In this document: positions 4,701 through 7,700 of the stretch, in pieces
Layout of the letters: every line of letters begins with the position of its first letter
Position numbering within the stretch: the stretch's first letter is position 1
NCBI RefSeq assembly: GCF_024223415.1
Contig: NZ_CP100500.1
Source: Escherichia coli
Lineage (GTDB): Bacteria > Pseudomonadota > Gammaproteobacteria > Enterobacterales > Enterobacteriaceae
Direction: 5' to 3' (one strand)
DNA: 64,000 bases
Program-made: the position numbers

Positions 4701-7700
4701 CTCTGTAGCGAACGATAAAGCTGCCCTGATTGCGAAATCTCGCGATACCTTTATTCGTCTGCTGAACGCCACCCCGAACGGTGTGATCCGCAACTCCGAC
4801 GTGGCAAAAGGTGTGGTCGAAACCTCCCTGAACGTCGGTGTGGTGACCATGACTGACAATAACGTAGAAATTCACTGTCTGATCCGTTCTCTGATCGACA
4901 GCGGTAAAGACTACGTGGTGAGCATGCTGGATTCGCTGGGTAAACTGGCTGGCGCGAAAACCGAAGCGAAAGGCGCATATCCTGGCTGGCAGCCGGACGC
5001 TAATTCTACGGTGATGCATCTGGTACGTGAAACCTATCAGCGCCTGTTCAACAAGACGCCGAACATCCAGATTATCCACGCGGGCCTGGAATGTGGTCTG
5101 TTCAAAAAACCGTATCCGGAAATGGACATGGTTTCTATCGGGCCAACTATCACCGGTCCACACTCTCCGGATGAGCAAGTTCACATCGAAAGCGTAGGTC
5201 ATTACTGGACACTGCTGACTGAACTGCTGAAAGAAATTCCGGCGAAGTAATTATTTGATTTGCTGCCGGATGGCGTTTAATCGCCTTCCGGCAGTTTCAT
5301 CCTTCATTATCCTTCGATAAAAGCCATCCCTGTAAACGTTCGTCGCGGGTTGCCACGTTCAATCTGGTGATGGAACATTCGCCGCTGCGATTTCAGCGCC
5401 GCGCTATTTTCCTGTTGCTGCTGCTCCAGCTTCCAGGCAATCAGCAATCGCGCCAGCCGTTTGTTAGCATGCTGGCTGCGCTCTGACTGAACCTTCACGC
5501 TAATACCGGATGCCAGATGCGTGGCGCGTACCGCCGAGTCGGTTTTATTGACATGTTGACCGCCCGGCCCCGACGAACGCTGCGTCTCATACCGGATCGC
5601 ATCGGATTGCTCCTGCTCATCAGCGGTAAAACGCCCAATGCCCAGAAACCAGTTTTTGCGCCCATGATGAGGCCGATACGGACTCGGACAAATCCACTGA
5701 ATAGTGCCGCACCAACTTTCGCTTAATGCCCATGCGTTATCGCCATCCAGAGAAATCAGCGCCGAACGCAGCGTGTCAGAGTAGCGGCCCGTTTCTGTTT
5801 CCAGCACCGTTACCGCGACGTCTTGTCGGGCAAAAACGACCAACAGAGAAGAACGCTGCGCCAATCGGGTAGCCGCGTCCGGGGTGTAAATCTGGCATCC
5901 CCACTACGCGCTGCATGTTGGGTAAATTTGCCGTGGTGTGTAATTGTTGGATCGCTAAACTCTCGATCCACAGGTCATCAGATGCGATGGTAAATACCGC
6001 ATCGGATAAGGGACGAATATATTTGCCCATGTACCATTCCATTTATACTCGTCATACTTCAAGTTGCATGTACTGCGACTGCGTTCGTTCACCCCAGTCA
6101 CTTACTTATGTAAGCTCCTGGGGATTCACTCGCTTGTCGCCTTCCTGCAACTCGAATTATTTAGAGTATATAAATATAAAAATCAGGAAATGGCAGACGA
6201 ATCCAGGGCAAGAAAAAAAGAATTAATCCTGGAAAGGTCTGCAAAGAGTCATTGATAAAGGATTTGTCATGATTTACCTCCTTGCAGTTTGTGGAATAAG
6301 AAAACGCGCACATACCAGGCGGGCGTTATTTTCATTGCAAGCTGGATTTAATGTTGCGGTTTATATCGCATATAAAAATTAGTAAACCACGCTCCCCGGC
6401 ATTCAACGCGCTGCTGCTTAACTGTCTGAAAACCATAACGTTCAAAAAAGGGTTTTGCGGTTATGCTGGCGTCCACCGTAAGTTCGGATTCAGACTTAAT
6501 CACAGGTTTTAACAAAGCGCTGGCAACCCCACGGCGGGTGTATTCAGGGTCAACAAATAACATATCGATATAGTGTTCAACGCAGGTAATAAAGCCGACC
6601 AGTTTTGCATTAATGACTGCAACCCGCACTTGTGATTTCGCGAGTTTATCCTTCCAGCGAGATTCGTCAATCTGCGCCCAGGCGGCAATTTGTTGTGGTG
6701 AATAATGCTGACTGGCGGTCATCATAACCGCTCTAATGAAAATAGCGCATAGTTGCTGAAAATCGCCAGGCTGATAGTTTCTTATTTGTATGTTATTCAT
6801 AATCCCAGCACCAGTTGTCTTTCCATTTGCGGATCCAGCAACGTCACATGCAGCCCCACCAGTCGCACACCGCGCCCGCCGCGGCGTTCATCCCAGGTTT
6901 TACGCGCGGTGGCGATTAAGTCAGCTTTATTCAGCCGCGGCCAGACGTGCTCCTGGGTGGTTTGCTGAAAATCGTCGAACTTTAATTTCACCCCCTGGCG
7001 AGCAATCAGTAAATCAGGTTTTACCTTTGCCAGACGGCGTTCAAGTTCCGGATACAGCCGCTCGATAATCGCTTCACATTCAGACCAGTGATGAATATCT
7101 TCCGCCATCGTGCGTTCCACGCCGACGGATTTTCGTAACCGTTCGCTGTTAACGTCGCGCTCGTCAATCCCCTGACTACGCTCCCACAAAATGCGGCCAA
7201 ATTTTCCAAAGCGTTTAAGCAGAATCACCAGATCACACTTTTGTACATCACCGCAGGTCCGCAGCCCCATCGCTTCCAGTTTTGCCGCCGAGACTTTGCC
7301 GACGCCGGGGATTTTTGCCAGTGGTAAGGTTTGTAAAAATGCCGGAACTTCTGCCGGCGTAATCACAAACTGGCCGTTGGGTTTATTCATGTCGGAGGCG
7401 ATTTTGGCGAGAAACTTTACTGGTGCCACGCCCGCAGACGCCGTCAGTTGCAGCTCGCTGAAAATCGTCTGGCGGATTTCCTGGGCGATGAGGGTCGCAG
7501 AACCGTGGCAATGGACGCTGTCGGTGACATCGAGATAAGCCTCATCCAGTGACAACGGCTCAATGCGAGAGGTGTAGCGCGAGAAGATTTCACGGATATG
7601 ATTTGAGGCTTCTTTGTAGGCGTCAAAGCGCCCCGGAAGCAAGGTGAGATGTGGGCATAATTTGAGCGCCATCCCTGTCGGCATAGCGCTGCGTACGCCA

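Follow-up and report, generated by a model that had tools for sequence, protein, structure and literature searches.

The intact rtcB2-prfH operon is a ribosome rescue-and-repair system, as demonstrated by published experiments (PMC9304027). Colicin E3 or CdiA-CT toxins cleave 16S rRNA between A1493 and G1494. PrfH then occupies the A site of the damaged 70S ribosome, which has stalled, senses the new 3′ end of the rRNA, and frees the peptide via its GGQ motif, and RtcB2 afterwards reseals 16S rRNA in the freed 30S subunit. The structure of PrfH on the damaged ribosome has been solved by Tian et al. 2022 (PMC9304027). The two genes overlap at the rtcB2 stop and prfH start codons, for which translational coupling has been suggested in the literature.

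Both proteins belong to wider families. RtcB2, as defined by NF007153/TIGR03073 (PrfH-associated RNA ligase RtcB family), shares the PF01139 domain and the N-terminal MPDxHxGxGxPIG motif with canonical RtcB (RtcB1, rtcBA operon) and with the tRNA-splicing RtcB of archaea and eukaryotes, but this paralogue is shorter, at 379 aa, is linked to prfH, and acts on 16S rRNA rather than tRNA (PMC9304027). PrfH has the GGQ peptidyl-tRNA hydrolase domain PF00472 in common with RF1/RF2 and ArfB, while domain 1 and the class I motifs for stop-codon recognition are missing from the PrfH family (PMC1586002).

A truncated form of the operon has been described in several E. coli strains. Baranov et al. 2006 (PMC1586002) found about 1,000 nt to be deleted in K-12 MG1655, W3110, and O157:H7; the genes of CFT073, 042, and UTI89 were intact. 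In MG1655, ykfJ (b0235, 267 nt) and prfH (b0236, 501 nt) are annotated as pseudogenes at this place, and Tian et al. 2022 (PMC9304027) presume that neither gene is active in K-12 or its derivatives. Maviza et al. 2022 (PMC9223846) have shown that the intact operon of ATCC 25922 protects against colicin E3; strain BW25113, which carries the truncated operon, is colicin E3-sensitive, and knocking out the remnants makes no difference. This experimental demonstration of non-function pertains to colicin E3 and to K-12 derivatives only. A literature search on ykfJ turned up nothing informative about its expression or function.

Here we consider a locus at positions 5307-6042 of a 64,000-nucleotide stretch of E. 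coli chromosomal DNA (referred to below as the window). Judging by its sequence, it is very probably (roughly 0.93) a dead remnant of rtcB2-prfH, a two-gene operon. The same relic is already known as ykfJ′/prfH′ of K-12, and the feature is an ordinary one. The population split of the deletion, its further decay, and the mosaic prfH remnant described below are a small addition to the cited papers and leave their picture unchanged.

The locus and its remaining reading frames

The gene order is crl-frsA-gpt and pepD, followed by prfH′, rtcB2′, yafP, dinB, and lafU on the minus strand. The locus and its flanks are orthologous to those of the intact operon in ATCC 25922, CFT073, and other strains. 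The 1,097 bp from the pepD end to the yafP start are 100% identical to strain SCU-316, and a 9,097-bp stretch around rtcB2′/prfH′ differs from that strain at 2 positions. RefSeq annotates rtcB2 and prfH of the near-identical SCU-316 as incomplete or partial pseudogenes, with the note “incomplete; missing N-terminus” for prfH′. The features of the locus are as follows.

5251..5306, no strand: 56-bp spacer between the convergent pepD and prfH′ (from the ORF and RefSeq coordinates)
5307-5864, minus strand: prfH′ ORF of 185 codons, containing SSGPGGQ
5307..5831, minus strand: prfH remnant (prfH′), codons 31-204 and stop, without a native start (profile, 7SA4 alignment)
5556..5564, minus strand: GGQ codons, PrfH residues 120-122, intact in the window allele (translation)
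5776-6042, minus strand: rtcB2 stub ORF, 88 aa
5776..5832, minus strand: out-of-frame tail of the rtcB2 stub, 18 codons and stop, from prfH DNA (translation from 6030)
5831..5833, minus strand: deletion junction (base-by-base flank comparison, blastn coordinates)
5833..6030, minus strand: rtcB2 remnant (K-12 name ykfJ′), native codons 1-66, MGKYIRPL...FFSVGRF (profile and tblastn)

The identity of both remnants is given by family profiles, with matches far beyond chance. The prfH′ ORF matches TIGR03072 (“peptide chain release factor H”) with E=2.4e-82 and 275.3 bits; it thus exceeds the family cutoff of 166.65 though partial, covering profile positions 30-200 of 200. The RF1, RF2, and ArfB models give weaker matches to prfH′, with scores far below their cutoffs. 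The rtcB2 stub matches NF007153 (“RNA ligase RtcB family protein”) with E=3.4e-29; its 102 bits lie under the full-length cutoff of 407, and only positions 1-69 of 379 are covered. A tblastn search with intact RtcB2 found the same residues 1-69 at 6030-5824. At the protein level, prfH′ aligns to residues 27-204 of PrfH in PDB 7SA4 (chain 8), T31A and L114Q being the sole differences over residues 31-204, while residues 1-66 of the stub are identical to RtcB2 of strain SaT040.

The sequence-only reading had described an 88-aa RtcB-like N-terminal fragment overlapping a GGQ-motif release-factor homolog, and both reading frames are indeed present, with an overlap of 89 nt. The RtcB N-terminus is real; the length of 88 aa can be refined. 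RtcB2 most likely starts at the ATG at 6030 (MGKYIRPL...) and not at that at 6042, since 6030 is where the NF007153 profile begins and where RefSeq places the start of intact genes, and only 66 of the codons are native, the last 18 being prfH DNA. The TTG at 5864 that opens the 185-codon frame sits within rtcB2-derived DNA and is not the native prfH start.

Signals for expression are scarce around the remnants. A promoter scan of 5200-6400 detected no sigma-70-like promoter. The pepD/prfH′ spacer contains a GC-rich hairpin visible by eye, CTGCCGGATGGCG...CGCCTTCCGGCAG, for which we only infer a possible terminator-type role: a terminator scan of 5200-6400 returned two terminator-like sites, no more than in shuffled controls, and this hairpin was not called.

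The 1,027-bp deletion and its consequences

In the intact loci of strains IDR1900005638-01-02 (L002) and SaT040 (L003), which served as comparators, rtcB2 is 1,140 bp long, prfH is 615 bp long, and the stop/start overlap is 4 nt. According to blastn and a base-by-base comparison of the flanks, the window differs from them by a single deletion of 1,027 bp (the missing part corresponds to L002 4583-5609), which joins rtcB2 nt 198 to prfH nt 90; the junction base pair at 5832 (A on the plus strand, T in gene orientation) is assignable to either side. The deletion has removed rtcB2 codons 67-379, or the 3′ 82% of the gene, as well as the first 89 nt (codons 1-30) of prfH, and has kept prfH nt 90-615. 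The partial family matches (PrfH 30-200 of 200, RtcB 1-69 of 379) are consistent with the mapped break. Since 1,027 is not divisible by 3, translation of the rtcB2 stub enters prfH out of frame and runs to a stop at 5776.

The deletion endpoints lie within a 9-bp imperfect direct repeat, T[A/G][T/C]CCG[G/A]CA. Its rtcB2 copy is TATCCGGCA and its prfH copy is TGCCCGACA or TACCCGACA, so that the two copies agree at 6 or 7 of the 9 positions, according to which prfH allele is compared. The deletion might have arisen by slippage or illegitimate recombination at this microhomology.

The same deletion is found in K-12. In MG1655, ykfJ and prfH likewise lie between yafP, upstream, and the convergent pepD, downstream, and the window aligns to b0235-b0236 over 736 nt without a gap and with 20 substitutions; therefore, the two deletions are the same in length and register. 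The genes annotated in K-12, 267 and 501 nt long, are equivalent to window positions 5776-6042 and 5307-5807. It would be appropriate to annotate the locus as the ykfJ′/prfH′ pseudogenes.

The predicted loss of function follows from the residues that are gone. Both the Cys76 region of RtcB2 and the essential His294 are located inside the deleted residues 67-379; the cysteine has a metal-binding role in RtcB structures. H294N is known as a null mutant (PMC9304027). Because His294 and the metal-binding Cys76 region are missing, the stub of 66 native residues predictably cannot ligate RNA. In PrfH, the pocket for the cleaved 3′-terminal A1493 is walled by R189 and G10-P12, with main-chain bonds from F9, and Q122E is a catalytic-null mutant (PMC9304027). 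The remnant retains R83, H86, R88, K89, N90, and the GGQ (120-122) and has lost everything before residue 31, F9 and G10-P12 included. Since this wall of the A1493 pocket is deleted, a PrfH′ product made from an accidental upstream start would miss part of the damage sensor. Further, in their reply in Baranov et al. 2006 (PMC1586002), the authors pointed out that the K-12 prfH product would miss a central β-strand of domain 2. Compared with the intact operon, the window lacks RtcB2 residues 67-379, PrfH residues 1-30, and the stop/start overlap, which was inside the deleted segment; as predicted from what is retained, neither catalytic ligation nor damage recognition can be complete.

What speaks against a dead remnant is that the prfH frame stays open for 185 codons with its GGQ kept. 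It may be supposed, then, that translation beginning at the TTG at 5864 or the GTG at 5807 still yields a product of truncated prfH′, a shortened GGQ release or rescue factor acting with or without canonical RtcB. The GTG at 5807 is the start used in the K-12 annotation, and, according to a reviewer of Baranov et al. (PMC1586002), Pel et al. 1992 thought expression possible. We regard this as very improbable, given the loss of residues 1-30 with a central β-strand of domain 2 and the F9/G10-P12 wall, the lack of a promoter-like site in 5200-6400, and the loss of the overlap with rtcB2; nor did knockouts of the remnants in BW25113 have a colicin E3 phenotype (PMC9223846). A partnership with canonical RtcB is further disfavoured by the mutually exclusive substrates of RtcB1 and RtcB2, according to PMC9304027.

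The dead-remnant reading agrees with most of what had been proposed from the sequence. rtcB had been called a stub, and residues 67-379 are deleted, only 1-69 of the 379 positions of NF007153 being matched; prfH had been thought to be N-terminally damaged, and it does lack codons 1-30 together with a native start. The alignment to intact rtcB2-prfH loci suggested at that time has yielded the one 1,027-bp deletion. That the module is probably nonfunctional is borne out by its status as RefSeq pseudogenes in both SCU-316 and K-12 and by the absence of colicin E3 protection from the truncated operon of BW25113 (PMC9223846). As for a full-length prfH with an intact partner elsewhere, which had been named as contrary evidence, prfH is not full length, and tblastn found no second copy of RtcB2 or PrfH in the 64-kb window. 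Intact pairs had been said to be “thought to act in ribosome or RNA repair”; the function was right and only the wording is dated, as it has now been shown biochemically and structurally (PMC9304027).

It is predicted that strains with the deletion allele, the source strain and K-12 among them, cannot repair 16S rRNA after its cleavage by colicin E3 or CdiA-CT. Such strains would be suitable complementation hosts, as MG1655 was for Tian et al.

Frequency and ancestry of the deletion alleles

The distribution of the two forms was surveyed in 5,426 complete E. coli genomes, with a match defined as at least 80% of the probe. A 100-bp junction probe matched 2,688 genomes (49.5%), and a 1,027-bp probe for the deleted segment matched 2,675 (49.3%). 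The two counts sum to 5,363 of 5,426; therefore, few genomes can have both junction and segment. Given that the junction occurs in 2,688 independent complete genomes, K-12 MG1655 included, and that no point in favour of an assembly or sequencing artefact was found, this explanation can be dismissed. The intact 1,027-bp segment was also matched at 6 plasmid places, so the module may occasionally be plasmid-borne.

The deletion alleles continue to decay. The whole 724-bp remnant is present in one piece in 1,999 of the 5,426 genomes, which, against the 2,688 genomes with the junction, leaves about 689 deletion alleles (26%) with further damage. A second deletion was seen in 8 of 60 evenly spaced remnant matches. 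In three sampled strains, it is a frameshifting deletion of 170 bp with ATGC microhomology that removes the GGQ codons, and in another sampled strain, an IS3 element cuts the 3′ end of prfH′. The further lesions are mostly the 170-bp GGQ-removing deletion, and such decay is the pattern expected of a pseudogene; it is at odds with an expressed shortened release factor.

A lesion was also seen in an allele of the intact type. E. coli E2348/69 (L014 357-971) carries an otherwise intact operon in which a premature stop in prfH, R194*, removes the last 11 residues; therefore, some “intact” alleles may also be impaired.

The window allele itself is uncommon. Identity of at least 99% to its remnant over 724 bp is found in only 7 records, the common deletion alleles being 97.2-98.2% identical to it. 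On the rtcB2 side, the window is identical to K-12 at 198 of 198 positions; identity to six sampled intact alleles is 98.5-99% for four of them and 95-97% for two. This rtcB2-side haplotype is identical in the window, K-12, and three other deletion alleles, and occurs in none of the six intact ones. All 20 substitutions relative to K-12 fall on the prfH side, two of them at 1 and 6 nt from the junction. There the window differs from each other sampled deletion allele at 13-20 sites, its remnant being 20/526 nt from the K-12 allele and 13-22/526 from intact alleles. At prfH nt 306-340, the window carries a set of clustered synonymous differences that recurs in the intact allele of TUM14771, whose prfH is the closest intact relative of the window prfH remnant among the alleles sampled. 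By its sequence pattern, the window allele is a rare recombinant variant of the deletion allele, a mosaic that, unlike the K-12 remnant, has a tract in common with an intact allele. The TUM14771 locus (L018 924-1731) has two additional genes, for a hypothetical protein and a metal-dependent hydrolase between pepD and intact prfH.

These data also bear on whether prfH′ might still be expressed. L114Q is the only amino-acid change private to the window allele among the alleles sampled, and pN/pS is 0.11 among deletion alleles vs 0.06 among intact alleles, as estimated from 5 + 5 alleles, which are too few for a formal test. Taken at face value, such values would be in favour of expression. Constraint on the remnant was nevertheless rejected as the cause of the low pN/pS, in view of the synonymous cluster shared with TUM14771 and of the many deletion alleles without GGQ. 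Recombination with intact alleles explains the low ratio better, because the middle of the prfH remnant matches TUM14771, and the synonymous diversity is likewise accounted for by this recombinant tract.

The number of origins of the deletion was considered by comparing junction sequences across 12 alleles. The deletion could have arisen more than once at the 9-bp microhomology, with the window being a second-origin allele and not a K-12-type descendant. At prfH nt 90, beside the junction, the window has G where the other sampled deletion alleles have A, and intact alleles include both states; a base 1 nt from the boundary of heterology is unlikely to be converted by homologous recombination, and the prfH remnant of the window is about equally far from K-12 and from intact alleles. 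A second origin nonetheless appears quite unlikely. The rtcB2-side haplotype is that of K-12 and three other deletion alleles and of no sampled intact allele, and the Flag-2 deletion scar 2.9 kb away is common to the window and K-12, with no gap in the alignment. The state of nt 90 means that a single origin needs one parallel mutation, a transition, as its only homoplasy, and the prfH-side divergence is explained by the recombinant tract. The two junction-side differences from K-12, once taken as a sign of an independent deletion, were therefore downgraded to a minor rival: the variant at nt 95 is confined to two deletion alleles, those of K-12 and EJN001, and nt 90 is a polymorphism also present among intact alleles. 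We thus favour one old deletion event, as the shared rtcB2-side haplotype and the ungapped Flag-2 scar would suggest.

Overall, the deletion is probably old and most likely of single origin; having reached about 50% in E. coli, its remnants would drift and exchange sequence with intact alleles. It is tempting to regard it as an old presence/absence polymorphism held near 50% by balancing selection, a reading that we consider improbable; in a weaker form, the microhomology would be a recurrent deletion hotspot, or headless PrfH would keep some activity. If balancing selection were at work, the repair module would be costly to keep but beneficial when colicin E3 or CdiA attacks, with deleted and intact alleles still exchanging sequence across the scar.

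Neighbouring features

The region upstream of rtcB2′ contains a repeat of the ERIC/IRU type, situated about 14 bp from the start codon.

6044..6170, no strand: ERIC/IRU repeat, 127 bp (primer match, inverted arms)

It has imperfect 25-nt terminal inverted arms (6044-6068 and 6146-6170) and an exact 22-nt ERIC1R-type sequence at 6108-6129, which we take to be the ERIC1R primer and for which 0 matches are expected by chance. An Rfam scan of 5200-6400 gave sub-threshold matches only, the best of them being this repeat, matched to Vibrio V_AS5 at 6048-6171. The repeat is absent from intact SaT040 and 65 bp shorter in IDR1900005638-01-02; therefore, the yafP-rtcB2 spacer varies independently of the deletion.

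Upstream of yafP, the window differs from K-12 in lacking yafN-yafO. This toxin-antitoxin pair (about 750 bp in K-12) is absent here and in all the other compared loci that span dinB-yafP; dinB and yafP are adjacent and overlap by 4 nt at 6797-6800. Farther on, the Flag-2 lateral flagellar deletion scar occupies 7923-10392, with a junction near 8694, where truncated lafU adjoins a headless flhA-like lfhA. The intact rtcB2-prfH strains IDR1900005638-01-02 and SaT040 keep lafU, motA, and fliA beyond the Flag-2 point. Just past the scar, there is a gene for a REP-associated tyrosine transposase (rayT, 10608-11105), followed by the dinJ-yafQ toxin-antitoxin pair at 12341-12882.

The type VI secretion cluster of the window shows decay as well (25615-28379, 33696-34755, and 47160-48570). 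Its vgrG/tssI is split into five short CDSs, and RefSeq, for the near-identical strain, records a frameshifted, partial tssD as well as frameshifts in tssG and in a VasL-domain gene. Beside this cluster lie an Rhs core protein gene (21151-25539) and an ISAs1 transposase fragment (19475-19849).
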